Source: Gemmatimonadota bacterium
Lineage (GTDB): Bacteria; 4572-55; J002
Reading direction: 5' to 3'
Length of the DNA stretch: 44,692 bases
Assembly (NCBI GenBank): GCA_003697105.1
Contig: RFFQ01000166.1
Location: forward strand, 1 to 44,692
Shown: positions 25,201-39,536 of the stretch, in pieces
Layout: each line of letters begins with the position of its first letter
Position numbering within the stretch: position 1 is the stretch's first letter
Position numbers and translations under genes: made by a program
The notes under the pieces: model-generated
The model's database searches: none
What the model was told of the DNA's origin: nothing
The model's input: the letters and a program-made list of their open reading frames with translations, nothing else

Positions 25201-25767
25201 AAACCGCTGGTATGCCGGTTCACCGGCATCATAAATGTTCATGTCTCCAACGATAACCCACTCCGTACCAGCCGGCAAACTTGCCAGATGATTCCGCAGT
25301 TCTGTCACTTCCCGGTCTCGTTGGGCTTCATTGGCACTGCCGGTACTGGCTTTGAGATGGCAACTATAAAATCGAACCTCGTTCCCGTTGATGGTGGCGA
25401 CATATTCGGAAATATTACGGAGTTCTGTCGGTATTTGTGCTTGAGAGACAAAGGAAACCGTAGAAGTGCGATAAAAAAACATGTGGTCTGTATCCGGACC
25501 ATCATTGAAGGTCGCCCGGGCATACCCGGGACCTAGGGCATTCAAAATCAGGTCTGCACCGCCAGCATCCACCATTTCCTGCATCAATAAGACATCCGGG
25601 TTGACATGGTTCAACACCGTCTGGAAATAGGTTTGGCGGTCACTATCCGCCGTATCCAGTTTTAGCCCATTGTAGGTCATTACCCGGAACGTGACATCCG
25701 CCAGAACGGCGGAAGAACAGACAAAAAACACCAACACCAACAGCATGACTACACGTGAGAAACGCAT
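22201..25767 (-). CDS. Secreted EEP-family (DNase I-like) nuclease with 3 PKD, 2 lamin-tail domains, a beta-sandwich domain and a FlgD/T9SS-type C-terminal domain
   Basis: Signal peptide; MTYN, QE, HLKA, GDMN, DRFD, SDHLPV; WDFGDG three times; FSEI.YD.PG...EEWIELYN twice; NYPNPFNP. Confidence 0.9.
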   Translation of the reverse strand: MRFSRVVMLLVLVFFVCSSAVLADVTFRVMTYNGLKLDTADSDRQTYFQTVLNHVNPDVLLMQEMVDAGGADLILNALGPGYARATFNDGPDTDHMFFYRTSTVSFVSQAQIPTELRNISEYVATINGNEVRFYSCHLKASTGSANEAQRDREVTELRNHLASLPAGTEWVIVGDMNIYDAGEPAYQRFIATGNGRSEDLIPANMVGNWHDNAAFASIHTQSPRTTQFGGGATGGIDDRFDMIFANYGVNDGAGIDYISGSYTVVGNDGNHFNLAVNDGNNSSVPANVADALHYASDHLPVYADFVSIGGASNTPPVANANGAYTGTISQTISFSSAGSSDADGSIVSYLWDFGDGATSTTMNPVYSYSSTGTYTVTLTVTDNLGATGTDQTTATITSGGSGSTGVIFSEILYDTPGTDSDEEWIELYNGGSSTIDLGGWTIIDNNGTGTSYTFSAGTTIAPNSYLTVAAVQTGFFAMYGYDADVYGSIPALNNGGDALILQNEAAQPVDAVAWEGGASAGVPSGWGSTTQPVCATGETIFRMDVNADTDTYADWSVATGNGNPQTQATTPGNVAPIAHANGTYSGLTGQAISFSSAGSSDSDGSIVSYLWDFGDGTTSSAANPSHTYQTAGTYAIHLTVTDDDSATGMDQTTATIENPNAAPTANANGTYSGLTGQAISFSSAGSSDSDGSIVSYLWDFGDGTTSTVANPSHTYQTAGTYAIHLTVTDDDGATGMDQTTATISDPVVASVVFSEIFYDTPGTESIEEWIELYNPTGSTVDLSGWTITDNNGAGSTYTIPPGTHLDSASFLTIAADPAGFTALYGADADLYGSIPALNNSGEALILQNGSAMVDAVAWEGGAGAGLPSGWGSTSLPNAPQGSSIVRTDPNTDTDTYIDWSVLSGNGDPHTLAPASVELLYADFESGWDGWSDGGGDCARYSGSRSYGGSYSIRLRDNSGTASAMTSGYVDVSAYDQLDIEFAFYAYSMENNEDFWVRYYDGSAWQTVASYARGTDFNNNTFYTATVTIDAGSYVFPSNAQFRFQCDASGNADHIYIDEVRIIASTVAGAASMAGRSSHAEIMTNPELVPTNEPAVPGSVVLSQNYPNPFNPATAIDFDLATAGHVSLQIYDLQGRLVTTLVDEFRPAGAYTIRWNGTDARGQAVNSGVYLYVMTSQKETQTRMMTLVK
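23545..24030 (-). repeat. Recent 261-bp tandem duplication of a PKD domain
   Basis: CATGCCGGTAGCG...GTCAAGTGGATCGCATACGTTCCGGCAGTTTGGTAGGTATG is nearly identical at 23560 and 23821. Confidence 0.9.
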
Positions 25768-26294: not shown

Positions 26295-26331
26295 AAAAAA
26301 ACAGCGGCGAGCCTTTGAAAGACTCGCCGCC
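26295..26331 (-). terminator. Terminator at the end of the PHA-associated operon
   Basis: GCGGCGAG/CTCGCCGC stem with T7 on the minus strand. Confidence 0.8.
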
Positions 26332-26362
26332 AGACACGTTCCCTAACAATTCAACCTGACCC

Positions 26363-27316
26363 TTACTTCAAAAAGTCTCGCACCGCCTGATTAAACGCAT
26401 CTGCCTGCTCATATTGAGCAAAGTGACCGCAATCCGCCAGCAAAACCAGGGTGCTATTGGGGATTTTTTGCGCCCCGATATTGGCAATATCGGCGGTACG
26501 CCCACCATGCAAGTACGGGTTGGGGATGAGTTGATCATTTTGTCCAAACACGATTAGCGTAGGCGGCTGCAGGGCATCCAACACATCCAACACCGGTTGG
26601 TCAACCATGCCGGTCACACATTTGCGGATGGTGTAGCAGTAGGCATCAAAATCGTGGGCATGACGTAGAGCAATGCGGTCGGTCACCATGAATTCCGCAT
26701 CTGGGGGCATATTGTAAAAATTATGCACCAGATTGGCGCGAATCTGCTGAACCGGAGTTAATTTCACGCCACGGGCGGTAATATTTTCCCGAAACCACTC
26801 TTTTTCCCCTTCAGAAAAGGCTTCAAATCCCGCTGGGGCAACTAAAATGAGCCGTTCCACCTGTTCAGGATATTTAAGTGCCATAATCATGGCAATCTGC
26901 CCCCCCATGGAGTGCCCCGCCAGAATGGCGGAATCAATCTTTAACTCCGCCATAAACTTCACGAGAATATCCGCATACCATTCCATCGTAATTGGATACG
27001 CCCCCTTGCTGGACTTACCATAACCGGGCAAATCCACTGCAATACAGCGATAATCCGAGCGTAAGGCTTGGATATTTTTGTGCCAGGCGGGAAGATAGCT
27101 TCCCAAACCATGAACAAAAAGGATCGTCTCACTGCCGCTACCTTCATCCACATAGGCGATGCGAATATCCGTCTCGATATCCGCATACTGAACCGCAAAA
27201 GGATATTGCAGGTCGGCAAACTCCATCTTCAAGGGAACATTCTTATAAGGGGTACAGCCCGTTAATGCAATGCTAAACCACATTAGCAATCCGATTGGTA
27301 ACATGTTGATTTTCAT
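26363..27316 (-). CDS. Alpha/beta hydrolase lipoprotein
   Basis: LTG/C lipobox, FVHGLG oxyanion motif, GHSMGG nucleophile, GQNDQLIP, CGHF. Confidence 0.88.
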   Translation of the reverse strand: MKINMLPIGLLMWFSIALTGCTPYKNVPLKMEFADLQYPFAVQYADIETDIRIAYVDEGSGSETILFVHGLGSYLPAWHKNIQALRSDYRCIAVDLPGYGKSSKGAYPITMEWYADILVKFMAELKIDSAILAGHSMGGQIAMIMALKYPEQVERLILVAPAGFEAFSEGEKEWFRENITARGVKLTPVQQIRANLVHNFYNMPPDAEFMVTDRIALRHAHDFDAYCYTIRKCVTGMVDQPVLDVLDALQPPTLIVFGQNDQLIPNPYLHGGRTADIANIGAQKIPNSTLVLLADCGHFAQYEQADAFNQAVRDFLK

Positions 27317-27348
27317 GGGATTCGTCCTTTATTATGACGCACGTCATC

Positions 27349-28383
27349 TTAATAGGTCGAATGATATTTGACCATCCGCCATTGATAATATCCGGTTAAA
27401 TCCTTGACATTAAAATGCCCGTATGGGGCACTGTAAAACACCTTTTCACCATCTTGTCCGGGAATTTGGGAGGTATAATCACCGTACACCACGCCGCCAT
27501 ACCCAATAACTTCATCCACAGTTGACCAGATGGTGTACACATAATCACCCTCATAACCACTGGTGGCATTGATATCCTCCAAAATATCAGAAACGCCATA
27601 GGGACCCATCCCCCACCACAAATAGCCCGGATAAAGTCCGTTGGTATTCGCACACGTGGGGGTGGAACCACCGCTGAGATAGCAGGAGACCAATCCTAAA
27701 TTGGCGCCGGCAATACCGACAAACGTATCCACAAAGGTCAGCGGACTTCCCAGATTGTAATATCCACCATCCAATAGGTCATACCCACTGCCCCCTTTAA
27801 TCGCTTTGCGAGCAAGGGTCACCCCCATCGAATGGGTGATCACATCGACATGATCGGCACCGGTGTATTCTTTCACCGCCAGAATAAATGCTCGGACGAA
27901 GGTCAGATATTCCCGCGAGTGGTATTGATATGCAGATAATGCCGCATTCGCCGGTCCCCACGTGGTGCCGTACAGCTCGGCGGAAGTGTACCCTTGGCTC
28001 TGAAAATAGTCCACGGATTCCGTCCAGCCCGTTTGCCCGAAAACATCACCGAGTGCTTTATCGGAGTTCCCGTGAATAAAGATAACCGGTTGGTTGGTCA
28101 CCGGATCGGAGGCAGTCAATTTACCCCCAAAACTCCCCCCGTCCAGATCGGTCCGGGCAAAATCAAACTCGCCATAACCATTTGCACTCAACCAGTTCTG
28201 AAAGTGGGGTGTTAGCCCCTCGGCAATTGCCGTTTGGGGAGAATCTGTTTTGACCGGTGGCAGGTCTGTTATTGCCGGTTCGTTGCCGGCGGGCACATCC
28301 AGAATTCCATCCGAACCACAATTTGCCAGTGCCAAGGATGTGAGGATCACACCGATTAGCATCCAGTAAAACCGAGCCTTCAT
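27349..28383 (-). CDS. Lipase_2 / PhaZ7-like esterase lipoprotein (candidate PHA depolymerase)
   Basis: LAN/C lipobox; PVIFIHGNSD, YHS..Y......FI..VKEYTG...VDVITHSMG, SC...PTC; GGAGG before ATG 28383. Confidence 0.8.
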   Translation of the reverse strand: MKARFYWMLIGVILTSLALANCGSDGILDVPAGNEPAITDLPPVKTDSPQTAIAEGLTPHFQNWLSANGYGEFDFARTDLDGGSFGGKLTASDPVTNQPVIFIHGNSDKALGDVFGQTGWTESVDYFQSQGYTSAELYGTTWGPANAALSAYQYHSREYLTFVRAFILAVKEYTGADHVDVITHSMGVTLARKAIKGGSGYDLLDGGYYNLGSPLTFVDTFVGIAGANLGLVSCYLSGGSTPTCANTNGLYPGYLWWGMGPYGVSDILEDINATSGYEGDYVYTIWSTVDEVIGYGGVVYGDYTSQIPGQDGEKVFYSAPYGHFNVKDLTGYYQWRMVKYHSTY

Positions 28384-28415
28384 AATAAACGCCTCCCATA
28401 AATTAAGGTTAAGGT

Positions 28416-29969
28416 TTAGAACATCAACCACTTAAATACCGAAAACAGCGCCCACGCATTGTCCGGCTTTTCCGTTTGATTGCCATTGGTCAGTGCGCTA
28501 TCGTAAAAATCACCGAGCGCAAGATACGCCCCGTACAGTTCCCAATCCATAAAGATTTTGAACTGATAGCCGACGCTACCATTGACTTCCAAACCGATCA
28601 AGCGACCGCCATTTTCCGGCTCCACGGTACTGAGGGCAAGCGCCGTCCCCGCTTTTGCCGAAAATTTGTTGGGAATTATATCTTTACTAAAATTGAGCGT
28701 ACCCGCTATCAAGCCGTAACCCAAATTGGAGAGGTCACTGACTGCCGACACATAGCGGTTGACAACATTTCCGTGTGGAAAAAGGAGATAAGCGCCACTG
28801 CTGATAACCAGTGCGCCGGGAGATGTCCATGTATTGCCGGTGATCACGCCACTATACAGATCATCATCGAGGGCGTCATCATCCCCGGAGGTAAACAGGA
28901 TGTCCAGCGTTACGGCGTCTTTAGCCGTTTGCCCGTACTTGTAGCCAGCTCTTAGGTTTGCCGCCATTCCAAAAATATCGGTTGAAGTACGCCAGCCATC
29001 TTCATCATGTTGTTGAACATACCCCAAGTTGGCGATGGCATAGCCATTTAAGGCAAACCGGCCAAGTGTAAATTCGGGATTCTGGTTGAAAAACGTACCC
29101 AACCAGAAAATATCCGCCCGATAGGGGTCGCTCCCCAACGGGAAACGAAAAACGCCATTATACGCCGTTAAAGCACTGGTTAAACCTTGGTTAAAAATCG
29201 AAACGCCACCCTCGCCATTCGACCGGTCATGAACATACCAGAAGGAGACGCCTTGCCGCCATGTTTTGGTCAGGTCACGCTCATACATTGCTTCCCACAG
29301 GGCGACATCATCCCGTTCTTGGATGTTATTTTCATATAATTGATAGTAACCCAGTTTCAAGCGGGCAAAATCCTGATCATGCCGTACGGAGATGCCCACC
29401 GCATCACTTCCCCAAAAATGGAGACGATAACCGGTGTACGTCATGGTACTAAAAAAGGTACGGTACGGGTTGTAAGGCGTGTCATAGAGCCGCTGCAACC
29501 CTAAATTGATTGCCCAACCGGGACGTGGGATCAGTTCGACCTCAATATTTTGTGTTTGGATGTTGGTCTGGTCACCTCCGAAGCCACCCCCAAAATTACC
29601 CCCAGCGCCATAATTTTGATCGCCCCACGTCCAATCCACTTCAAACGAGGCTCGCAATAACGCTTTGCCATTAAAAATCTTGGGCTGGTAGATGAGGAAA
29701 GGCAGTAAACGTTGTTCAAAATAGCTGGTGGCAGGACCATTGGTGCTGGTGTAATTACCGCCAAACAATCGACCGACCGTCTGCCCTTTGAAGACATCCG
29801 TTGTGGAGGAAATATTATCGGCAACACCTTTGGTGATAAAATAGGCTAAAAATTGGAACTCGCGCGGGGTTTCTTCCGGCAACCGTTCTTTTTCCGCCGT
29901 ATCCCAATCATTTGCCACCAGTGGCGAGGTGAACATCAACAACATCAGTCCGATAATGGTGATTCTCAT
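28416..29969 (-). CDS. Putative outer-membrane beta-barrel protein
   Basis: Signal peptide, many alternating beta-strands, C-terminal VFKWLMF. Confidence 0.75.
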   Translation of the reverse strand: MRITIIGLMLLMFTSPLVANDWDTAEKERLPEETPREFQFLAYFITKGVADNISSTTDVFKGQTVGRLFGGNYTSTNGPATSYFEQRLLPFLIYQPKIFNGKALLRASFEVDWTWGDQNYGAGGNFGGGFGGDQTNIQTQNIEVELIPRPGWAINLGLQRLYDTPYNPYRTFFSTMTYTGYRLHFWGSDAVGISVRHDQDFARLKLGYYQLYENNIQERDDVALWEAMYERDLTKTWRQGVSFWYVHDRSNGEGGVSIFNQGLTSALTAYNGVFRFPLGSDPYRADIFWLGTFFNQNPEFTLGRFALNGYAIANLGYVQQHDEDGWRTSTDIFGMAANLRAGYKYGQTAKDAVTLDILFTSGDDDALDDDLYSGVITGNTWTSPGALVISSGAYLLFPHGNVVNRYVSAVSDLSNLGYGLIAGTLNFSKDIIPNKFSAKAGTALALSTVEPENGGRLIGLEVNGSVGYQFKIFMDWELYGAYLALGDFYDSALTNGNQTEKPDNAWALFSVFKWLMF

Positions 29970-29985
29970 GGTTTGACCCTTTCAT

Positions 29986-30028
29986 AAAGAAAGGGACTTA
30001 CCCTGTGTTTAAGAAACAAGGTAAGTCC
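29986..30028 (-). terminator. Intra-operon stem-loop after the lipoprotein gene
   Basis: GGACTTACC...GGTAAGTCC followed by CTTTCTTT on the minus strand. Confidence 0.65.
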
Positions 30029-30045
30029 GAGTTACCACATCAAAA

Positions 30046-30588
30046 TTAGTCATCTGCCCGCACATAGTGTTGCACATTGGTTGTACCCAAAGCACCGCCG
30101 TTTGTGCTTCCAAAACCAGCTTCCGCCGTAGGAGCCGTGTTGTTGGTGCCAGAGGTTTGAACCACTTCATACGTCATACGGTGCGGGTTAACATTTGTGT
30201 TAATTTCATAGATACCGGAAACATCCGCAGAATACGGGGCAGATTGCACAATGGCGATATTGCGAATACCCTCAACACTGCTTTCGGTGGTCACGTAGGT
30301 TCCATATAGCGCACTTTCCGTCCCATCGCCATTAACTTGACGGACACTGTACGTACCATCTTCATTGAAATAGGCGTAGATGGAATCAACACCGCCCACC
30401 GCCGCGAAGAGCGTATTGAGCAATGGGGCAACATCATCTCCGGCAGAAATCCATGTGCCCACAATCAACTGTGCCGGATCGGTCGTACTACCCCCGTCAC
30501 CATCGTCATCATCACTACACCCGGCAACAAACAGCGAAAACGCAAGCAACAGCGCTGTCATCGCATAAAAAACAGACGTTTTAGACAT
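30046..30588 (-). CDS. Hypothetical lipoprotein (lipocalin-like)
   Basis: VAG/CSDDDD lipobox and acidic tether; LIVGTW motif; AAGGAG RBS. Confidence 0.8.
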   Translation of the reverse strand: MSKTSVFYAMTALLLAFSLFVAGCSDDDDGDGGSTTDPAQLIVGTWISAGDDVAPLLNTLFAAVGGVDSIYAYFNEDGTYSVRQVNGDGTESALYGTYVTTESSVEGIRNIAIVQSAPYSADVSGIYEINTNVNPHRMTYEVVQTSGTNNTAPTAEAGFGSTNGGALGTTNVQHYVRADD

Positions 30589-30644
30589 CTTGAAACTCCT
30601 TTCTTCCCCGCAGGGAACAATCTGTGAAAAAGTGAAATAAATAG

Positions 30645-32147
30645 TTATGCCAAATTCCTCAACGCATTCCGGTTGATTTTACCGGTATCGTTGAGCGGAA
30701 TGGCATCAATAAACCGCACTTGTTTTGGAATTTTATATTTAGCTAAATTGCCCTGACAATAGCGAATAACATCCTCTTCCGTGAGGGTTGCCCCGGCGTT
30801 GAGGACGACATACGCTCGCCCGACTTCACCCCACTTCGCATCCGGAACACCGATAATGGCGACATCGGCAATGGCATCGTGGGTTAACAAAAACTTCTCA
30901 ATTTCCGCCGGATAGACATTTTCCCCTCCGGAGATGTACATATTTTTCTTTCGATCCACGACATAGATGTAACCTTCAGCATCTCGCCGCACCAGATCGC
31001 CGGTCTGGAACCAACCGTCCTTGAGAGCCTCTTGGGTGGCAGTTTCATTTTTCCAATATCCGGGAGTGATGGAGGGACCCGCCAGCACTAACTGCCCCAC
31101 TTCGTCCACATCGACATCATTGCCATAGTCATCGACAATGCGGGCTTCGATGTAAAAATTCGGTTTGCCGATAGAACCCATTTTGCGCACCGCATCATCT
31201 TGGTGCAAACTGGTGACACTGGGACCACATTCCGTCATCCCGTAGCCTTGCCGCACCGGCACCCCTTTCTGGTGCCAAATGTGGATCAGTTCTAGGGGCA
31301 TCGGTTCCCCACCGACCACAAAAAAGCGCAAGGTGGATAAATCTACCGCTGAAAACGAATCCGCCGTTGCCATCATTTGGAGCATCGTTGGTACGGCGAC
31401 AAACATCGTGGCTTTCTCGGTTTCGAGTAAATTCAGCAACATCTCAGGGTCAAACTTCCGGGTGATACTCACATACGCTCCGTGATGAAAAAAGGGAGTC
31501 GGAATCACATTCCACCCGCCGGTATGAAAAAGCGGCATACACGAAACCGAGCGGTCATCCGACGTGATATTAAGCCGCATGGCGGTGTTAATGCTGTTCC
31601 AAAAGAGCATCTTGTGGGTGTACATCGCGCCCTTCGGCAAACCCGTCGTGCCAGAAGTATAAAGAATAAAAATCGGGTCATCCTCTTGGATGTCTTGCGA
31701 TTCCTTAAATTTAGTGGTTTCGTTACGATAAGCATAGCCATATTCGCCCATCTGCGCCATATCCCACACGTGCGCGATATTTTTAGCATACGTACAGTCC
31801 CATAACCTGTTTTTGAAGCTCTCCTGCACCGCTAAAAATGAGGGCTGGCAATCTTGCAACTGGAAGTCCAACTCTCGCGAGGCAAGCCGGAAATTGAGCG
31901 GAACGAGGATCAAGCCGGTTTTCTGCGCCGCAAAAAAAAGGAAAAAATGTTCCAATGAATTTTCGGCAAGAATGGCAATCCGGTCTCCCCGCTTCAATCC
32001 CATCTCGGCGGTGAACAAATTGGCAAATCGATTGGCAACCGTGTTCAATTCCTGATATGTCAGCGTTCGTCCACTTTCTACTTCTTGAACAGCGATTTTT
32101 TTCGGGGAATATTGCACCCACTTGCCCAGCCAATCATAGCGGATCAT
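30645..32147 (-). CDS. Acyl-CoA ligase (FadD/MenE-like AMP-binding enzyme)
   Basis: YTSGTTGLPKG, GYGMTE, TGDL, SGGENVYPAEIE, TGKI. Confidence 0.92.
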   Translation of the reverse strand: MIRYDWLGKWVQYSPKKIAVQEVESGRTLTYQELNTVANRFANLFTAEMGLKRGDRIAILAENSLEHFFLFFAAQKTGLILVPLNFRLASRELDFQLQDCQPSFLAVQESFKNRLWDCTYAKNIAHVWDMAQMGEYGYAYRNETTKFKESQDIQEDDPIFILYTSGTTGLPKGAMYTHKMLFWNSINTAMRLNITSDDRSVSCMPLFHTGGWNVIPTPFFHHGAYVSITRKFDPEMLLNLLETEKATMFVAVPTMLQMMATADSFSAVDLSTLRFFVVGGEPMPLELIHIWHQKGVPVRQGYGMTECGPSVTSLHQDDAVRKMGSIGKPNFYIEARIVDDYGNDVDVDEVGQLVLAGPSITPGYWKNETATQEALKDGWFQTGDLVRRDAEGYIYVVDRKKNMYISGGENVYPAEIEKFLLTHDAIADVAIIGVPDAKWGEVGRAYVVLNAGATLTEEDVIRYCQGNLAKYKIPKQVRFIDAIPLNDTGKINRNALRNLA

Positions 32148-33670
32148 TTTGGTACCTCTGATTTCGATGGAAAAAGAAGAAGCATCAACCCCCCCACCAC
32201 CACGGAGCTTAAAATCGCGATGGCAGCAGCAATCCCAGGATTTCGGACGGCGATCATCTCACCATTCTGCCACATATAACCGGTGATTCCCGGAAATTTA
32301 CCGACATAATAGATGTAAAAATGAACCACCACTGCCGTTACAGAGGCGGAAACCGGCACCCGCGTCGGAATCTGTTTTAGAAAAGTACCAAAAAGCACCG
32401 GTACAAAGGCGGCGGCAAAATAGGCGTACACTCCATTTTGGGCAAAAATACCGACACTGAGTTTTGGATTCACCAACTGATCCCATGAAATAAATGCCGT
32501 TGCCACGGCTAGGATGATAATCACAACACGATTCAGAACCATTTCTGATTTGGTACCGGAGAGCCATTTGCCAAAGATAGGTTTAATAAGGTCTGCCGTG
32601 ATCGTGGTGGAAAGGGATTGGATCAGCGCCTCTAGCGTTGAAAGTCCAGCAGAAATCAGCCCCATCACCACAATCAAACCGATAAAAACCGGAAACTCAC
32701 TCACCACATACGCCGGAATAATTCCATCCATTTTAAGAGGCTCGCCGTTCACCGTGAGATCAGGGAACGTTAATCGGGCATATAACCCGGCAATGACGAC
32801 CAGAAAAAAGAGAAGCTCCGCCAAAACACCCACGGTCAGATAAATATTGACATCTTTATCGGTCTTTAAGAAGAAAGATTTCGTGATGATGTGCGGTTGG
32901 CAGACAATCGCTACCCCCACAATAAGTTGGCAAAAAATAATCTCAAAATAGTCGCGGAAAAGAAGGCTGGTGGGATTGGTGGGAGTTGCCAAGAAGGGGT
33001 CAATAGCGCTGAGTTTTGCCAAAAACCCGTGAACCCCCTCCCGGAAATGCTCATAACCCGAACCGAGTAAAATGACCGCCACAACCAACATGATCCCAGC
33101 TTGAATCGTATTGGTATAAACCAATGAATTGGCACCTCCAAACATCATATAGCCAAAAATAAAGGTGACAATACCGATCAACGCATACAGTTCGGCGATA
33201 TTTAAGGTTTTGGAAAGCACCTTGACCAAACCCACTACAATCAGGACCACAAAGGTCAAAAGTAAGAGCGAAAGCACCGCGAAAAAGAGAGAATACCCCT
33301 CACTTTTATACCGCGAGCCAATCCACTGTGCCATCGTCAGGGCTTTGACCGTCTGCCCGTACTTGCGGAAGCCTTTCGTGAGTATGATCAACGAGATAAC
33401 TGCCGCCACCGGAACAACAATCCCAAAGGAAATCACCCCACTGATACCATAAAGGGCGATAAAACCGGGATTGATGATGAACGTCGCGGCGCTGGTCATG
33501 GAAGCGGCAAGCGACAAGCCTACAAAAATCGGATTAAATGCGATGCTCCCGACGGCATAGTCTGACATACTCTTAATTTTCAGCGCACCCCGAATAACGA
33601 ACACTAGGATGGTCGCCATGTACGCCACTACCAAAATCCAGCCGGCAAATACTAATTGTTGCGATGCCAT
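32144..33670 (-). CDS. Sodium:solute symporter (SSS family)
   Basis: About 13 TM helices, SAATFI.NPG, QPH motif, SAGLST; 4-bp overlap with the ligase gene. Confidence 0.9.
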   Translation of the reverse strand: MASQQLVFAGWILVVAYMATILVFVIRGALKIKSMSDYAVGSIAFNPIFVGLSLAASMTSAATFIINPGFIALYGISGVISFGIVVPVAAVISLIILTKGFRKYGQTVKALTMAQWIGSRYKSEGYSLFFAVLSLLLLTFVVLIVVGLVKVLSKTLNIAELYALIGIVTFIFGYMMFGGANSLVYTNTIQAGIMLVVAVILLGSGYEHFREGVHGFLAKLSAIDPFLATPTNPTSLLFRDYFEIIFCQLIVGVAIVCQPHIITKSFFLKTDKDVNIYLTVGVLAELLFFLVVIAGLYARLTFPDLTVNGEPLKMDGIIPAYVVSEFPVFIGLIVVMGLISAGLSTLEALIQSLSTTITADLIKPIFGKWLSGTKSEMVLNRVVIIILAVATAFISWDQLVNPKLSVGIFAQNGVYAYFAAAFVPVLFGTFLKQIPTRVPVSASVTAVVVHFYIYYVGKFPGITGYMWQNGEMIAVRNPGIAAAIAILSSVVVGGLMLLLFPSKSEVPK

Positions 33671-33710
33671 ATTTCATCCTCAGTTGATTGATGGAACCCG
33701 CGTCACGGGG

Positions 33711-34454
33711 CTACAGTACCAATCCCCCATCGACACTAAGTACCGCGCCGTTAATAAAACTCGCTTCATCGGAACACAGGAACAAATACGCATTGGCAAT
33801 ATCTTCCGGCTGGCCCAACCGCCCCAAGGGAGTTTTTTCCAATAGCATGGTAATCACCTTTTCCGGAACCGTTTCGATCATCTCGGTGGCAATAAAGCCG
33901 GGAGCTACCGCATTCACATTAATGCCCTTCCGCCCCAATTCCCGCGCCCAAACTTTGGTCATACCGATCACACCCGATTTAGTGGCAACATAATTGGTTT
34001 GCCCAAAATTGCCGTATATTCCGACAACAGACGAGGTATTCACAATTTTACCGGCATTTTGAGCCAGCATATACTCGGCAACCGCCCGAGTACAATTAAA
34101 TACCCCCGTTAAATTGACATCAATTACCTGTTGCCATTGCTCCGGGGTCATTTTTTTAAGTGTGGCATCCCGAGTAATGCCCGCATTATTAACTAGAATA
34201 TCAATCTGCCCATAGGTATCAACCACCGTTTTAGCGGCGGTTTGCACCGCCGTAAAGTCGGTAATATCCACCGACATGAATGTCACCTGCAAGTCCTTTT
34301 GTTGAAGCGCCTCCGCCGTTGCCGGACCCTGAGCCGAGTTGACATCCCAGATCACAACCGTCGCCCCTTCGGTGGCAAATTTTTCAGCGGCGGCACGCCC
34401 TAAGCCTCGCGCACCTCCCGTAATGATTGCGATTTTCCGGTCGAGTCGATTCAT
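33711..34454 (-). CDS. phaB: Acetoacetyl-CoA / 3-oxoacyl reductase (PhaB/FabG-type SDR)
   Basis: TGGARGLG, NNAGITRDATLKKM, NFGQTNYVATK (YxxxK); phaEC context. Confidence 0.78.
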   Translation of the reverse strand: MNRLDRKIAIITGGARGLGRAAAEKFATEGATVVIWDVNSAQGPATAEALQQKDLQVTFMSVDITDFTAVQTAAKTVVDTYGQIDILVNNAGITRDATLKKMTPEQWQQVIDVNLTGVFNCTRAVAEYMLAQNAGKIVNTSSVVGIYGNFGQTNYVATKSGVIGMTKVWARELGRKGINVNAVAPGFIATEMIETVPEKVITMLLEKTPLGRLGQPEDIANAYLFLCSDEASFINGAVLSVDGGLVL

Positions 34455-34480
34455 TTCTAGTACCTCAAATATTCTTTATG

Positions 34481-34496
34481 TTTGAAAATTTTCAAA
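34481..34496. promoter_or_regulatory. Palindromic operator 1, upstream of the phaB operon
   Basis: Perfect palindrome TTTGAAAATTTTCAAA just downstream of a minus-strand TATAAT (34502-34507). Confidence 0.7.
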
Positions 34497-34506
34497 TTTA
34501 TATTAT

Positions 34507-34547
34507 AAAAAAAGACCAGCGGTCTGCACCTCTTCAGACAGCTGGTC
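34507..34547 (-). terminator. Terminator after the regulator gene
   Basis: GACCAGCTGTCTG/CAGACCGCTGGTC stem with T7. Confidence 0.8.
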
Positions 34548-35040
34548 AGGAATGTTCATAAAGTTTTTTGCGTTCCACCGCCCATTCCTCCAAAAACAAT
34601 TGGTGATATTTTTCCATCAAGGTATAAAAGCGGTGCATTTCACGCATCCGTTGGGAAAGGGTGGATAAATCCCCATTTTCATTCGCTGCTTCCACAGTGG
34701 ATTGAAGCCGTTCCGCTAAGCGGGTATTATTCTTAATCAATTCAAATTGATTACGAAAGGCATTGGCAAAAATTTCCGGCTGAATTTCGTAATAGTCCTT
34801 ACGGGTATCCGGCACCCACACCTTGCGGATGAGGTTTTTTTCCGCCAACCGTCGCACGATTTGGCTAATGGGACCCTTACTCCGCCCCAGCTCATCCGTG
34901 ATTTCATCCAGCGATAAGGGGCGTGGATAGTACAATAATAGGGCAACAATATGCCCCATCAAGGCACTTAACCCGAACGATTGGTACGCATCCCCGAAGG
35001 ATTGGATCATTTCGTGTTTAATGGCGTCAGGTTCGTTCAT
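34546..35040 (-). CDS. GbsR/MarR-family transcriptional regulator
   Basis: FGLS..MGHIVALLLY...PLSLDEITDELGRSKGPISQIVRRL...RKDYY; start at MNEPD. Confidence 0.87.
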   Translation of the reverse strand: MNEPDAIKHEMIQSFGDAYQSFGLSALMGHIVALLLYYPRPLSLDEITDELGRSKGPISQIVRRLAEKNLIRKVWVPDTRKDYYEIQPEIFANAFRNQFELIKNNTRLAERLQSTVEAANENGDLSTLSQRMREMHRFYTLMEKYHQLFLEEWAVERKKLYEHS

Positions 35041-35067
35041 TTGGAAGTTCCCAGTAAATTCAATATA

Positions 35068-35083
35068 TTTGGTAATTTTCAAA
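35068..35083. promoter_or_regulatory. Palindromic operator 2, upstream of the regulator
   Basis: TTTGGTAATTTTCAAA, 14/16 identical to operator 1. Confidence 0.62.
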
Positions 35084-35175
35084 CGAACCAAATATACACA
35101 AATTCTAAAAATGCGCAAGCGTTTTTTTACCCATCTGGCACGCGGCATCTCGCCTTTAAACACGGGGTGATGCCA

Positions 35176-36243
35176 TTAACTTCGTTCCTGCAACCAAGCG
35201 GCAATCGCCGGGGCAAGCTCTTTTTGCGCTTTAGAACTCACAAATACGCCAATATGACCGCTCTCAAAGGCATACAGCGATGTATCCGTACTGCCCACAT
35301 GGTCTGTCAAGGGAGTCACGGCGGCGGCGGGCACAATATGGTCTTTGGTGCCATAAATATTCAGTACGGGCATGGTAATATTTTTCAGAACGACCCGTTG
35401 TTCACCCACCCGCAATTTATCTTGGATTAACTTATTCTGTTGGTATAAATCCTTGACAAACTGGCGGTAGCACTCGCCTGCCTGATCGGGGCTATCAAAA
35501 ATCCACTTTTCCATCCGCAAGAAGTTCAGGACTTTCTCTCGGTCATCCGCAATGGTTAAGAAGTTCAGATACTTTTCAATGCGTCCGAATGGGCGTAGCA
35601 TCATGAACCCGGTGTTCAGGAAATCTGCCGGTACAACCCCATAGGCATCGACCACGGCATCTACGTTGAAATCCTTCGCCCAGCGGAACAGCAAGGCATC
35701 ATCGGTGGAAAAATCAACCGGCGTGACGATTGTGGTTAAGGTGTTGACTTTTTCTGGAAACAGCGCGGCATACATGACCGATAGCGTCCCACCTTGGCAA
35801 ATCCCGATGATATTAACCGCCGGACTGCCCGTTTGCTCCCGAATGGCATCCACGCAATTGTCAATATAGCCGCACACGTAATCTTCTAAGGTCAAGTAGG
35901 CATCTGCCCGGGTGGGATAGCCCCAGTCAATCAGGTACAAATCGATACCGTGTGCCAAAAGATTCCGCACCAAACTGCGATCCGGTTGCAGATCGAGCAT
36001 GTAGGGACGGTTCACCAAGGCATAGACCAGCAAGGTCGGGATGCGTGCAGAGGGAGAATCTCCCTGTTGGTAATGGTAAAGTTGGAGCTTATCCTCCTGA
36101 TATACGAGGTCTTTAGGGGCGGTCCCAACATCCACTTCATCAATACTTAGTAAAGTTTCATAAGCACAAAACCATTGACGAAGTTGTTCCATAAGATGAG
36201 CATTTGCCCCTGCCAGATTCACATTGAATAGTGGCGTCCCCAT
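35176..36243 (-). CDS. phaC: Class III PHA synthase subunit PhaC
   Basis: YALVNRPYMLDLQPDRSLV, GICQGG (catalytic Cys), FLRMEKWIFDSPD, DHIVP, GHIG. Confidence 0.96.
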   Translation of the reverse strand: MGTPLFNVNLAGANAHLMEQLRQWFCAYETLLSIDEVDVGTAPKDLVYQEDKLQLYHYQQGDSPSARIPTLLVYALVNRPYMLDLQPDRSLVRNLLAHGIDLYLIDWGYPTRADAYLTLEDYVCGYIDNCVDAIREQTGSPAVNIIGICQGGTLSVMYAALFPEKVNTLTTIVTPVDFSTDDALLFRWAKDFNVDAVVDAYGVVPADFLNTGFMMLRPFGRIEKYLNFLTIADDREKVLNFLRMEKWIFDSPDQAGECYRQFVKDLYQQNKLIQDKLRVGEQRVVLKNITMPVLNIYGTKDHIVPAAAVTPLTDHVGSTDTSLYAFESGHIGVFVSSKAQKELAPAIAAWLQERS

Positions 36244-36245
36244 GC

Positions 36246-37508
36246 TTAATCCTTCTTTTTGGCTTTGGTTTTGGTTTTCATTTGTTTTTCAAGGGAGTTA
36301 ACCTTACGCTTGAGGTCTTGCACCGTTTTGTACAGCTCATCCATCTCCGACCGGAGCACCACCGGGTAACCGGCAAGGGTTTGTTCCATCCATTTTTGGA
36401 GTTCCGCGCGCAGTGCCAGACCCTCTTCCAGCAGTTGATTTTGTAACGTCGAAAATTCCTGAGTCTCAAATAGATCGAGAAAAACCGTTTCATTGGTATC
36501 CAGCCACAATTTGAAAAAGGCATCATAGGTGGAAATATCGTCCCCCGCCTTGATCATTTCCGCGACGCGGTCTGCCACCTGTTCCAATGCGCGCTGTCCG
36601 TGAGTGTAAATCATCTGCTGAAATTCGGCAAAACGACGGGTATATGCCTGATATTTTTCATAAATCGCTGTCATTTGTTCCGCAGGGAATAGGTGCCCGC
36701 TGGCATCATTCAGCAGGGGAGACATCGCCGCTTTGTACGCTTGATTCAGATGATCCATCACCGCAACCGCCGATGATGGGTCGGTTACCATGAGTGACGG
36801 GATGCTCTTCATGGCATGTGCCATCATTTCCGCCAGACGTGCAACCGTAGCATGCCCGCTCCCCATCACCTGTTGCCACAAATTCAAGGTTTGGGTATAT
36901 ACCTCTTTGGTTGCATCTGGTGAAATAAACTCAAAAATGCGATCCATTACCGGTTGGTAGGCTTCCGGGCGAAACAGCGCTTTGTACCGTTCCGGATCGA
37001 ACGATTTATTAAGAATATCGTGTTGTAATGGCAACCAAAGGGTAAATACTTTGGCGTATGCATCCATACTACTTAGCACATTTTCCACCATCCCCTTTTG
37101 CAGATTTCCGGAAACAGCTTTCGTCATCTGATCCATCGATTTCCATAAGGTATTTAACCATGCTTGAGCGGCAGTGGTGGTATCCTTCGGGACAAAATCA
37201 CCAAATGCCTTCTGGCTTTTTTCTAGCGTATCCTGCCATTGCTTCATTTGCTGGTGCTGCCAATCCGCCCATTGCCAGTATTGCTCTTCCGTGGAGTGCT
37301 GAAACCGTTGGAAAGCCTCCAAATACGTCTTCAACCATTCTGATGCGGCATGGGTCCCGTAAGTTGTGTCATCTGGGGGGGCGTCACCGGCAGATGCGGC
37401 ACGTTCTGTGCCGGTTGATGGGGTCGGATTCACCATATCTTGCCACGTTTTCATCCACTGCGCCTGATGTTCCAGCCAGTTGTTAAAAAAAGGGGTTGAA
37501 TTTGCCAT
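36246..37508 (-). CDS. phaE: Class III PHA synthase subunit PhaE
   Basis: Helical W/Q-rich protein with C-terminal PVVLRSEMDELYKTVQDLKR; directly upstream of phaC; GGAGG before ATG 37508. Confidence 0.9.
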   Translation of the reverse strand: MANSTPFFNNWLEHQAQWMKTWQDMVNPTPSTGTERAASAGDAPPDDTTYGTHAASEWLKTYLEAFQRFQHSTEEQYWQWADWQHQQMKQWQDTLEKSQKAFGDFVPKDTTTAAQAWLNTLWKSMDQMTKAVSGNLQKGMVENVLSSMDAYAKVFTLWLPLQHDILNKSFDPERYKALFRPEAYQPVMDRIFEFISPDATKEVYTQTLNLWQQVMGSGHATVARLAEMMAHAMKSIPSLMVTDPSSAVAVMDHLNQAYKAAMSPLLNDASGHLFPAEQMTAIYEKYQAYTRRFAEFQQMIYTHGQRALEQVADRVAEMIKAGDDISTYDAFFKLWLDTNETVFLDLFETQEFSTLQNQLLEEGLALRAELQKWMEQTLAGYPVVLRSEMDELYKTVQDLKRKVNSLEKQMKTKTKAKKKD

Positions 37509-37556
37509 CAGTACACCTCCTGTAACCAAACGTAAAAATATTTATTATTTATAACT

Positions 37557-37607
37557 TTTGATAAATTTCAAACGCTGAAAATATAATCAATTCAGGGAAT
37601 CTGTCAA
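37557..37607 (-). promoter_or_regulatory. phaEC promoter with palindromic operator 3
   Basis: Minus-strand TTGACA-N16-TATATT, followed by TTTGATAAATTTCAAA (37557-37572). Confidence 0.68.
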
Positions 37608-37877
37608 GATTTTTTTGCGGGCAGATGACCCAGTCCGGTGGTGAGCGTTGCTGTATCTGCACCATTAAAGCCTTCGCACTTGACTTTTCAGGCAAAATTT
37701 GATAGAAACTCCATATCACATCTCTGGCGAGGACAGACCCTTCTCCTTCCTCCACCACCATGGAACAACCATAAGGTAACGTGGGCGGCACACAAGAACA
37801 GTTGGGTGTTTCTGTGTGGCTTTGCGCCTTCGGGGTAACGTTATTTTTCAACCGTCTGCAAAGACTTAGCATACATT

Positions 37878-39536
37878 ATGAATCCGAAAATTCAGACCCT
37901 CCGGCAAAAGTTAGCCCATGCCCGAGGAAAAAAGAGAGTCAATCTCTTGAATGATCTGGCATTTGCTTACTGGTCTATTGATCCGCAACAGACAAAATCA
38001 TACGGGGAAGAAGCTCTTCAATTGGCACATGAATTGGATGATGATCCTTTACGAGCCAACAGCTACAGCAGTTTGGGCTCTGCCGCTTGGCGGTTGGGAC
38101 AGTATGATCAAGCCCTCGAATGGTTTCGGAAAACGATCCCCATTTACGAGGCGACCGGTCATATTGACGGTTTAGCCAAAACATATAACAATCTGGGTAT
38201 GGTTTACCAGTACAAAGGGGCGTATATGCAGGCGATCACCTGGCTAAACCGTGCATTGGAACTTAAACAAACCCTAGACAATCCAGATTCAATCGCACGA
38301 ACGTTGACGAATCTCGCGATTGTGTGCCGCCATCAAGGGGATTTCAAGCAAGCCATAGAGTATCAATTGGAGGCACTTCGGATATTTGAGAGGCAAGAAG
38401 ACTGGCTCACGGTCGCGATGTGCTATGATAATCTGGGCTATTTTTACACCGATCTGAAGGCATACGATACCGCCGAACGTTACCTCCAACACGCCCTTGA
38501 GATTTATCGCCGGTACGATCATCTGCCGCAACAGGCGGTTTGCTACCATAATTTGGGCAATATTTTTCAGGAAAAAGGTGCGTGGGATCAGGCATTAAGG
38601 TATTATCAGCGCATCGAAAAGCTGGCAGATACAATTCAAGACCCGCAGCGGATTGCCGCCACAATACAGACCATCGGTCAGGTGTATTCGGCATTGGGAA
38701 ACACGGAACTGGCAGAAGATTACTTACGCCGGGCACAGGAAATGTTCATTCAGATCGGCGATTTACGGAAAATTGCCACAAGCCACCTGCGGCTCGGTAC
38801 ACATTTGTTGACCGTCAACGCCTTTGATTCCGCGGAGGCACAATTCCGGCAAGCCCTAGAACAGGCAGAGAAAATTGGAGCAAAAGATGTACAATCCAAT
38901 GCCTTGCGGGAACTTGCCCAATTGTACGAAATTCAAAAAGATTTCTCACAGGCGCTTGCTTTTTACAAGGCGCACCACCGGGCAGAACAGGAACTGTTCA
39001 CTCGCCAAAAAACCGAGGCTATTGAACGGTTACGCATCGAGTACGAAAGTGAACGTAAGGAAAAAGAGGCGGAAATTTACCGGTTGAAAAATGCCCGCCT
39101 CGAAGCGGAAATCCGGCATAAAAACCAGGAGTTGCACTTGCTCGCGTTGAATCTGGTGCAAAAAAATCAGTGGATCGAGGACATCAAGGCGCAGATTCAG
39201 GCGGCACAACCCCAAACCGGCTTGGCGAATTGGATCGACCAACTCCGGCAAAGACTTGACAGACTTCAGGAATCCGAAGCGGATTGGGACGCCCTTGAAC
39301 AGCAATTTCAGATGGTTCACCGCGATTTTATCGAACGTCTTTCTCACCATTACCCCAATCTCACCCCTATGGAACTCAAAGTCTGCGCTCTGCTCAAACT
39401 TAACCTCACCACAGCGGACATTGCCACCATATTGTGTCGCTCTAACCGCAGTGTTGAGGATCACCGGCAATCCCTCCGCCGCAAATTTGGCTTGAAGCGC
39501 TCCCAAAACCTCGCCTCGTTCGTTGTTTCCCTTTAA
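37878..39536 (+). CDS. TPR-repeat transcriptional regulator with a C-terminal LuxR-type HTH
   Basis: About 8 TPRs (A.TYNNLG), a coiled coil, LTPMELKVCALLKLNLTTADIA...VEDHRQSLRRK; no signal peptide or TM helix seen. Confidence 0.88.
   Translation: MNPKIQTLRQKLAHARGKKRVNLLNDLAFAYWSIDPQQTKSYGEEALQLAHELDDDPLRANSYSSLGSAAWRLGQYDQALEWFRKTIPIYEATGHIDGLAKTYNNLGMVYQYKGAYMQAITWLNRALELKQTLDNPDSIARTLTNLAIVCRHQGDFKQAIEYQLEALRIFERQEDWLTVAMCYDNLGYFYTDLKAYDTAERYLQHALEIYRRYDHLPQQAVCYHNLGNIFQEKGAWDQALRYYQRIEKLADTIQDPQRIAATIQTIGQVYSALGNTELAEDYLRRAQEMFIQIGDLRKIATSHLRLGTHLLTVNAFDSAEAQFRQALEQAEKIGAKDVQSNALRELAQLYEIQKDFSQALAFYKAHHRAEQELFTRQKTEAIERLRIEYESERKEKEAEIYRLKNARLEAEIRHKNQELHLLALNLVQKNQWIEDIKAQIQAAQPQTGLANWIDQLRQRLDRLQESEADWDALEQQFQMVHRDFIERLSHHYPNLTPMELKVCALLKLNLTTADIATILCRSNRSVEDHRQSLRRKFGLKRSQNLASFVVSL

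Follow-up and report, generated by a model that had tools for sequence, protein, structure and literature searches.

In sludge, mats and sediments, much carbon is stored as polyhydroxyalkanoate (PHA), a polyester that is also sold as a bioplastic. The described systems closest to the locus considered here are the class III PHA operons such as that of Allochromatium vinosum, in which phaC-phaE stand together with phaA, phaB and a phasin gene; the hydrolase PhaZ7 of Paucimonas lemoignei, whose lid tyrosines are polymer-binding residues; the outer-membrane barrels AlgE and OprD/Occ; and the SusC/SusD polysaccharide utilization loci (PULs) of Bacteroidota. Here, contig RFFQ01000166.1 of a Gemmatimonadota bacterium (assembly GCA_003697105.1; 4.18 Mb in 199 contigs, 96.9% complete) was analyzed over its full length of 44,692 nucleotides, referred to below as the window, with emphasis on a set of ten genes that an earlier note, made from the letters alone (the original prediction), had proposed to be a locus for the scavenging, import and re-polymerization of PHA. 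The conserved part of this locus is, with good confidence, an envelope-to-coenzyme A (CoA) scavenging module for a small carboxylic acid freed from esters. Our preferred but tentative reading is narrower, namely a module that takes up (R)-3-hydroxyalkanoates as oligo-esters or monomers and to which a class III PHA synthase and a PhaZ7-like hydrolase have here been joined. The module itself is real, conserved and undescribed; its function is plausible and unproven.

Conserved linkage of the module

The claim of ten co-oriented genes was borne out by open reading frame (ORF) calls and family scans (Table 1). Intergenic spacing, taken from the coordinates, does not exceed ~135 nt, and the genes of the sodium:solute symporter (SSS) and the ligase overlap by 4 nt. 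Linkage was compared across 4 loci from genome contigs, 20 of the 34 Bacteroidota hits (401 sampled genomes), each with its 20-kb surroundings, and 80 metagenome loci. Labels were given to greedily called ORFs by blastp (E <= 1e-8), with the ten window proteins and a few proteins from loci L007, L043, L054 and L058 as references. Removal of ten loci with a duplicate barrel ORF left 94 distinct loci, and each count includes only loci with sufficient flank; the counts come from mutually related loci (barrel identities ~41% to 65%) and are not independent events. The outer-membrane barrel, which served as the anchor, has 929 homologs in a large protein collection, of which the 120 listed share 54-65% identity and derive from the FCB-group lineages Calditrichota, Ignavibacteria, CSSED10-310 and Bacteroidota; it is present in 34 of the 401 sampled Bacteroidota genomes, and 243 metagenome matches were obtained.

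It can be observed that the lipoprotein gene lies immediately upstream of the barrel gene in 87 of 90 loci and the alpha/beta-hydrolase gene immediately downstream in 85 of 86. A gene for a ligase or a CoA-transferase was near the barrel in 78 of 79 loci, one for an SSS or a major facilitator superfamily (MFS) transporter in 62 of 67, and a FabG-like gene in 56 of 57. Furthermore, a gene for a protein like beta-ketoacyl-acyl carrier protein synthase III (KASIII) accompanies the barrel in 63 of 67 loci, an acetoacetyl-CoA-type thiolase gene stands within or beside the cluster in 11 of 28, and regulator orthologs are found upstream of fabG in 20 of 55. Neither phaC nor phaE was found in any of 47 related loci, nor the Lipase_2 gene in any of 62. 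On the basis of these counts, the conserved unit comprises seven of the ten genes, to which phaE, phaC and the Lipase_2 gene are additions. The linkage test proposed earlier was clearly passed by seven of the genes, those of the barrel, lipoprotein, hydrolase, CoA-activating enzyme, symporter and reductase being linked in 56/57 to 87/90 informative loci; phaEC and the PhaZ7-like gene do not belong to this conserved set. In the flanks of the module, close relatives aside, no further recurrent gene family was detected.

Two records nevertheless place the additions beside the module in other lineages. A CSSED10-310 metagenome-assembled genome (MAG) holds the PhaC MFC1852324.1 and the barrel MFC1852318.1, each with a sole contig of 8899 bp and six accession numbers apart, a spacing equal to the window order barrel, lipoprotein, ligase, SSS, fabG, regulator, phaC. 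In a Bacteroidota MAG, a single contig of 43580 bp carries both the Lipase_2 homolog MEO1051905.1 and the barrel MEO1051907.1, whose accession numbers differ by two. The accession numbers thus suggest that phaC and Lipase_2 each recur beside the module in one further lineage; no close Lipase_2 homolog was found in the 401 sampled Bacteroidota genomes (0/401).

Table 1. Features of the locus in window coordinates, with the evidence for each assignment
Feature	Position	Strand	Evidence
Ten-gene set	26363..37529	-	ORF calls and family scans
Terminator-like hairpin past the last gene	26302..26332	-	14-bp stem, 8 G-C pairs, T run; pattern match only
Alpha/beta-hydrolase lipoprotein, predicted periplasm-facing	26363..27316	-	Abhydrolase_1 113 bits; GHSMG; lipobox LTGC
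Lipase_2 lipoprotein, PhaZ7-like subfamily	27349..28383	-	PF01674 195 bits (cut-off 20.3), profile 1-218 of 219; THSMG; lipobox LANC
Outer-membrane beta-barrel, AlgE/OprD-like fold, 517 aa	28416..29969	-	AF2 pLDDT 72; Foldseek AlgE E 2e-13
Lipocalin-like lipoprotein, 180 aa, predicted surface-exposed	30046..30588	-	AF2 pLDDT 87.8; lipobox VAGC; no family match
Acyl-CoA ligase (ANL family)	30645..32147	-	AMP-binding 302 bits
Sodium:solute symporter family inner-membrane transporter	32144..33670	-	PF00474 113 bits; distant from PanF, PutP, ActP
NAD(H)-type FabG-like (R)-3-hydroxyacyl-thioester dehydrogenase / 3-oxoacyl reductase (predicted)	33711..34454	-	NF004198 320.4 bits (cut-off 296)
Winged-helix (MarR/GbsR-like) regulator	34546..35040	-	Weak HTH_24/MarR_2 matches; CudC 51 bits (cut-off 218)
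phaC, class III PHA synthase catalytic subunit	35176..36243	-	TIGR01836 474.7 bits (cut-off 365.3), GICQG box
phaE, class III PHA synthase subunit	36246..37508	-	PF09712 81.2 bits (cut-off 25.7); start ATG 37508
Promoter-like site (TTGACA-16-TATATT) upstream of phaE	37580..37607	-	11/12 consensus positions, consensus match only

Envelope proteins and CoA-thioester enzymes

The barrel protein carries a signal peptide and a C-terminal Phe, and has no family match. In the Foldseek search, AlgE (TM 0.51/0.60) was followed by MOMP, OprD/Occ channels (1e-7 to 1e-5), chitoporin and ScrY, and the ESM Atlas model matched Alginate_exp clusters with a TM of 0.90. At the level of sequence, no match to Pfam Alginate_exp (PF13372) was obtained at E <= 0.01, such a match being precomputed in 5 of the 120 listed relatives, and the barrel profile retrieved nothing from the PDB sequences at E <= 10. 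Moreover, no gene for the synthesis of alginate or another exopolysaccharide was found in the window or in 104 related loci. Several Gly-rich stretches of the barrel are conserved in sequence and modelled at low confidence; as loops, they may reach inside the barrel and constrict it. The neighbouring lipoprotein was modelled as an eight-stranded lipocalin-like barrel, with VIA Z scores of 9.9-8.5 to Tp0751, BACOVA_00364, BT_0846 and BACUNI_01346; Foldseek gave only weak matches and none at E <= 0.001, and its profile gave only chance-level rows among the PDB sequences. After the lipid-anchor Cys it reads SDDDD, and C-SDDDD equals the surface-export consensus that PMC5080379 gives for Bacteroides fragilis. 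At least two acidic residues occupy positions +2 to +6 in 63 of 69 lipoprotein orthologs with a recognizable lipobox, while no acidic run follows the Cys in 54 of 57 hydrolases (the pattern missed 42 further hydrolase sequences). Because of this difference, the lipoprotein is predicted to be a surface binder and the hydrolase to face the periplasm.

The triad of this hydrolase, Ser136-Asp261-His298, is conserved to at least 97% in 80 orthologs. Its solved relatives are the uncharacterized 4f0j, the C-C hydrolases MhpC, BphD and HsaD, and, for the N-terminal half only, a PHB (polyhydroxybutyrate) depolymerase, and they are not diagnostic. A clearer relationship was obtained for the Lipase_2 lipoprotein. 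Searched alone, it retrieves no solved structures other than those of PhaZ7 (8 of 8 sequences, E ~1e-16, residues 100-279), and a profile of its 32-member family gives 88 bits to PhaZ7 against 27-36 bits to Bacillus LipA-type lipases. Ser185, Asp290, His323 and two Cys are invariant across the 32 members. The THSMG box aligns with AHSMG of PhaZ7, and the His region aligns as well, although that stretch alone is not significant. Regarding the lid of PhaZ7, Tyr105 and Tyr190 have counterparts in the window protein, a deletion removes the region of Tyr176, and Leu stands in the place of Tyr189. The PhaZ7/Lipase_2-like assignment of the original prediction is therefore retained in part: the protein belongs to Lipase_2 and resembles PhaZ7 more closely than LipA, without being an equivalog of PhaZ7. 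The part of the original prediction in which the envelope hydrolases cut PHA finds no support in the family models, as neither hydrolase reaches the cut-off of a PHA-depolymerase family. In the window lineage, the PhaZ7-like lipoprotein may add an attack on the polymer. A cluster of 393-aa Lipase_2 homologs (47 member sequences) also has a precomputed AMP-binding (PF00501) match, and in that metagenome lineage a ligase gene may abut the lipase gene.

Inside the outer membrane, the composition of the module in relatives is informative with regard to the ligand. The SSS is swapped for an MFS anion transporter in locus L054, and an unlabelled 408-aa ORF occupies the same position in L057. The nearest structures of the ligase are a feruloyl-CoA synthetase and a fatty-acyl-CoA synthase (347 bits), followed by FadD13 and MenE. 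The barrel tree (FastTree) contains 59 ligase-type and 24 CoA-transferase-type loci; in the latter, a derived clade with 24 of 93 other barrel sequences, the ligase is swapped for a protein with 347 bits to the 4-hydroxybutyrate CoA-transferase 3eh7, and a second KASIII-like gene and a thiolase join the cluster. In locus L058 a MaoC/PhaJ-like hydratase follows the ligase; L060 and L061 have equally long ORFs there. Such variants speak for a hydroxy-acid that is short and water-soluble and is processed as its (R)-3-hydroxyacyl or 3-oxoacyl thioester. The arguments for a short hydrophilic acid are the dedicated SSS (or MFS), the CoA-transferase swap, the acetoacetyl-CoA-type thiolase and the AlgE/Occ/OprD fold of the barrel, while (R)-3-hydroxyacyl chemistry is favoured because of the L058 hydratase and of the kinship and Asp37 residue of the reductase, described below.

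In short-chain dehydrogenases/reductases (SDRs), the residue that ends beta-strand 2 governs the choice between NAD(H) and NADP(H), and a basic residue following the strand marks an NADPH-type pocket. At this point Asp37 (VVIWDVN) is present in 68 of 68 module copies of the reductase, and the genome's second FabG, on contig C65, has Ser-Arg (GSRT). Because of Asp37, the module reductase is predicted by this rule to use NAD(H), which suits catabolism no less than synthesis. Its score on TIGR01829 (acetoacetyl-CoA reductase PhaB) is 263.5 bits, below the cut-off of 302.1, and among solved structures it is most closely related to 4nbu (303 bits) and to 2et6, a (3R)-hydroxyacyl-CoA dehydrogenase (248 bits); the label phaB, given earlier, was accordingly dropped in favour of an NAD(H)-type enzyme nearest to these two. 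The structure 4nbu shows FabG of Bacillus sp. SG-1 with bound NAD and comes from work on an NADH-dependent FabG (PMC5264612).

The KASIII-like protein of the relatives passes the NCBI subfamily cut-off for beta-ketoacyl-ACP synthase 3 (258 versus 249). Decarboxylative condensation by KASIII enzymes requires His and Asn. Alignment to S. aureus FabH shows, however, that the protein retains the nucleophile Cys while Thr and Tyr occupy the positions of His and Asn, a Cys-Thr-Tyr pattern common to all copies (75 of 75). Cys-Leu-His marks the second copies (29 of 29), and the triad Cys-His-Asn is found in the FabH that the genome encodes on contig C81. Since the catalytic His and Asn are replaced, the Cys-Thr-Tyr protein, judged by its residues and this mechanism, cannot be an ordinary decarboxylating condensing enzyme, and it may be an acyl-transferring one. 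One such gene lies at L043:4137-5126 (+). No KASIII-like module gene was found in the window genome, and the accession spacing indicates that the CSSED10-310 contig likewise has none. The window has phaEC instead, and PhaC is likewise Cys-dependent and acyl-CoA-using. That PhaC is a functional replacement of the KASIII-like protein is a speculation.

PHA genes, proposed route and rival explanations

The box G-x-C-x-G, with a Cys nucleophile in a lipase-like setting, is the defining mark of the class III PHA synthase family, and PhaC of the window shows it as GICQGG. PhaE scores 69 bits on NCBIfam TIGR01834, below the cut-off of 154.95, and is thus a divergent PhaE; on sequence grounds, PhaEC is intact. 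The listed relatives of PhaC share 60-67% identity, are mostly named class III PhaC, and come from MAGs of Nitrospirota, Thermodesulfovibrionales and Deltaproteobacteria. As stated in the original prediction, the window has no phaA thiolase, phasin or phaR; no match to such a family was found in the other 17 window ORFs scanned. Across the genome, family searches with Phasin_2 and PhaR gave no match, the intracellular PhaZ model gave nothing except a weak match to PhaC itself, and the 3HBOH family search gave no match, but is uninformative, as it gave none in the control genomes either. A thiolase is encoded on the 3.5-kb contig C199 (395-aa ORF, 346 bits to Thiolase_N). As a thiolase is available elsewhere in the genome, the route "without a thiolase" that had been suggested is unnecessary. 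Adjoining this thiolase, the only one of the genome, an ORF at C199:2755-3483 (-) starts with repeated MKDEGGR-like peptide units.

From the gene content, folds, catalytic residues and linkage described above, we infer a route with the following topology, direction of transport, substrate and coupling to PhaEC. The surface lipocalin-like lipoprotein would capture a small ester or acid, which the AlgE/OprD-like barrel would admit across the outer membrane. In the periplasm, the serine hydrolase lipoprotein would cleave the ester bonds, after which the SSS symporter could bring the freed carboxylate in and the ligase convert it to a CoA thioester. The NAD-type FabG-like enzyme would then interconvert (R)-3-hydroxyacyl-CoA and 3-oxoacyl-CoA, and the thiolase encoded elsewhere would cleave the latter to acetyl-CoA. 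In the present lineage, with phaEC added upstream and the PhaZ7-like Lipase_2 lipoprotein inserted between barrel and hydrolase, 3-hydroxyacyl-CoA might be either burnt or re-polymerized by PhaEC. The substrate class would most likely be (R)-3-hydroxyalkanoate oligomers or monomers released from PHA. The parts fit the outside-to-inside route put forward earlier, given the surface-export-like signal of the lipoprotein, the channel fold of the barrel and the apparently periplasm-facing hydrolase. The position of the module next to genes for making storage polyester hints at feeding on other cells' bioplastic. A stronger version, in which the module is an undescribed, phylum-spanning outer-membrane uptake system for the PHA breakdown products of other cells, and PhaEC replaces the Cys-only KASIII-like enzyme here and in the CSSED10-310 relative, is considered doubtful. 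If it is true, scavenged monomers could be re-polymerized straight into the cell's own granules, so that external polyester becomes internal polyester and acetyl-CoA is bypassed.

Several observations weigh against the PHA-related reading. The three PHA-related genes are absent from the related loci counted above, and PhaC_N matches occur in 7 of the 401 Bacteroidota genomes, none of which is among the 34 barrel holders; therefore, the core module works without PHA synthesis. The PHA-specific depolymerase models are not passed: 94.7 bits were obtained on that of intracellular short-chain-length PHA depolymerases (cut-off 300), and the Lipase_2 protein reaches 90.2 bits on the PhaZ7 equivalog NF050060 (cut-off 450). 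The relatives of the Lipase_2 protein are annotated as lipase or triacylglycerol lipase, and its N-terminus, C-GSDG, has no clear surface-export signal. The ligase passes the NCBI subfamily cut-off for long-chain-fatty-acid--CoA ligase (487.8 versus 476). A lipocalin-like binder would also fit hydrophobic ligands, and the export-signal rule is derived from Bacteroidota while the host genome belongs to another, sparsely sampled lineage. We know of no role for the KASIII-like gene in known 3-hydroxybutyrate (3HB) catabolism. Finally, phaEC may form a transcription unit of its own, since a weak terminator-like site and a promoter-like site separate the regulator from fabG.

Some of these points lead to the scavenging of lipid or fatty-acid esters, for which both lipoprotein hydrolases would have to act as lipases or esterases and the ligase as a FadD; fatty acids would move by way of the lipocalin-like protein and the barrel, and the acyl-CoA would feed beta-oxidation, lipid synthesis or medium-chain PHA. 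The subfamily score of the ligase, the presence of FadD13 and a fatty-acyl-CoA synthase among its nearest structures, the lipase annotations of the Lipase_2 family and the lipocalin/FABP-like fold of the lipoprotein agree with it. It is nevertheless judged unlikely: long-chain fatty acids are not known to require an SSS or MFS anion symporter, the ligase swaps with a 4-hydroxybutyrate-CoA-transferase-like enzyme whose family acts on short acids, the barrel is AlgE/OprD-like with no FadL chain among the Foldseek matches listed, and the Lipase_2 profile prefers PhaZ7 to LipA-type lipases by the scores given above. The possibility that the locus merely joins two unrelated neighbours, phaE-phaC (perhaps with the regulator) being an ordinary PHA synthase operon that lies by chance upstream of a module whose substrate has nothing to do with PHA, is likewise given a low probability. 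The lack of phaEC in 47 of 47 other informative loci, the sites between regulator and fabG, and the nearest relatives of PhaC in Nitrospirota and Thermodesulfovibrionales MAGs, which suggest a separate origin, would all be explained in this way. However, the same phaC-barrel spacing, as indicated by accession numbers, is found in a second, ~61-63% identical lineage, a second PHA-related gene (PhaZ7-like) sits inside the module, the module gene missing here (KASIII-like) and the gene gained (PhaC) both encode Cys-dependent, acyl-CoA-using proteins, and the regulator is followed at once by the FabG-like gene, in the order of the standard module.

The remaining explanations start from single components. 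An esterase that frees ferulate- or coumarate-like acids for import, CoA ligation and CoA-dependent beta-oxidative shortening (hydratase, SDR dehydrogenase, thiolase) would make this a locus for hydroxycinnamate or phenylpropanoate esters, consistent with a feruloyl-CoA synthetase as the closest solved structure to the ligase, the kinship in fold between the barrel and OprD/Opd channels (vanillate-bound OpdK among them), a MarR-type regulator, weak matches of the MFS replacement to aromatic-acid symporters, and MhpC and BphD among the solved relatives of the hydrolase. But the 4-hydroxybutyrate-CoA-transferase-like swap indicates short aliphatic acids, the window has no hydratase/aldolase, and the recurrent links to PhaC and the PhaZ7-like protein are left unexplained, which makes such a function improbable. 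Supply of primers for fatty-acid synthesis, where an imported short or branched acid is converted to its CoA thioester and a KASIII and FabG pair starts acyl chains in the relatives, would account for the side-by-side occurrence of the two genes (63/67 and 56/57 loci) and for the synthase 3 score of the KASIII-like protein. This is quite improbable, as the Cys-Thr-Tyr residues (75/75) are not those that decarboxylative condensation requires, the NAD-type reductase differs from the Ser-Arg FabG of the genome, the window is wholly without a KASIII-like gene, and the envelope hydrolase would have no explanation. Synthesis and export of a lipid or polyester through an AlgE-like barrel, or a pathway like OleABCD (KASIII as OleA, hydrolase as OleB, ligase as OleC, SDR as OleD), is suggested by the best fold match, AlgE, being an exporter and by four enzyme classes that superficially resemble those of OleABCD. 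It is very improbable: an inner-membrane synthase and a periplasmic scaffold are both lacking, SSS proteins are known as importers, the hydrolase, with the signal peptide of a lipoprotein, lies outside the cytoplasm, no OleC beta-lactone synthetase occurs among the 13 solved relatives of the ligase (E <= 1e-60), the SDR is of the classical FabG type, and the window has no OleA-like gene. Uptake of (R)-3-hydroxyalkanoates remains our tentative preference.

Surroundings of the locus and comparison with described systems

The true starts of three genes are likely at 37508 (phaE), ~35040 (regulator) and 28383 (Lipase_2); that of the regulator, Met42 of the listed ORF, was placed by ortholog comparison. 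The regulator is a winged-helix protein, as originally stated, while the name GbsR is loose, with only weak MarR/CudC-like matches. The hairpin past the last gene is the strongest terminator-like one in the scanned region. Upstream of phaE, a 107-aa ORF at 37549-37872 (-) was weighed as a possible phasin or PhaR and discarded; it matches no family, is an odd Cys- and Pro-rich sequence that contains the promoter-like sites, and is probably not a gene. Divergent from phaE, the window encodes at 37878-39536 (+) a TPR-rich protein with a C-terminal LuxR/GerE helix-turn-helix, which could be a regulator of the locus. In relatives, an all-helical protein of ~480 aa (for example L007:12493-13944 (+)) without a Pfam or NCBIfam match has homologs in 23 of 46 related loci (483 aa); its gene stands either past that of the hydrolase or in divergent orientation to fabG, often with a gene for a ~131-aa protein before it, and the protein may be a regulator. 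No similarity between this protein and the TPR-LuxR protein was detected.

Elsewhere in the window, four proteins (15320-17575, 17669-19336, 22201-25767 and 43687-44592) have type IX secretion C-terminal sorting domains, which indicates affiliation with the FCB group. One of these four, of 1188 aa and encoded directly downstream of the locus, combines endonuclease/exonuclease/phosphatase, lamin-tail and PKD domains. A 1577-aa fusion at 10265-14998 (-) consists of a Ser/Thr protein kinase, AAA_16, TPR repeats, GAF and a sigma-54 activator domain, and a 912-aa ORF at 39684-42422 (+) has no Pfam match. The lineage is sparsely sampled: the 2 genomes of the same class that were compared both lack the barrel and class III PhaC. 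The stretch is present in two hot-springs metagenome runs, and no RNA run is listed among the sequencing runs.

With regard to significance, uptake of soluble PHA breakdown products across a Gram-negative outer membrane has no description in the searchable literature. In open-access papers and preprints, no PHA or polyester utilization locus, no outer-membrane uptake of 3HB oligomers and no PhaZ7 in Bacteroidetes were found, nor anything relevant on alginate-export-family proteins or KASIII-like acyltransferases; the earlier statement that no characterized system with this layout was known agrees with this result. Furthermore, the core module holds three proteins without an assigned family, namely the barrel, the lipoprotein and the Cys-Thr-Tyr KASIII-like protein. 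The window provides a functional clue, because it represents one of only two lineages, among those compared here, in which PHA genes are joined to the module.

In comparison with class III PHA operons, the locus shares adjacent phaE and phaC and a 3-oxoacyl reductase gene nearby, but it has no thiolase, phasin or PhaR, its reductase is NAD-type, and the operon runs on into an envelope uptake module. That reductase, which has Asp at the end of beta-strand 2, is closest to the NADH-dependent FabG 4nbu and to 2et6, the (3R)-hydroxyacyl-CoA dehydrogenase of MFE-2, and differs from both in that its gene is embedded in an uptake module. The barrel has the fold of AlgE and the OprD/Occ channels; unlike these, it has no Alginate_exp match and no alginate genes, it is paired with a lipocalin-like lipoprotein and a hydrolase, and the direction of transport would be inward. 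With PhaZ7 (PDB 2vtv, 4bvl), the Lipase_2 protein has in common the fold family, the xHSMG box, a length of ~340 aa, two conserved Cys and an aligned catalytic His region, whereas it is a lipoprotein, aligns significantly only over residues 100-279 and does not reach NF050060. Finally, the designation "PUL-like" given earlier is apt in logic only, for the TonB-dependent SusC and SusD are both missing. An AlgE/OprD-like diffusion barrel and a small lipocalin-like binder take their place, and ester hydrolases with CoA-thioester enzymes are found instead of glycoside hydrolases. Like a Bacteroidota PUL, however, the locus is a single co-oriented cluster that unites a (here predicted) surface lipoprotein bearing an acidic export signal, one transporter for each of the two membranes, a hydrolase in the periplasm, enzymes in the cytoplasm and a regulator of its own.

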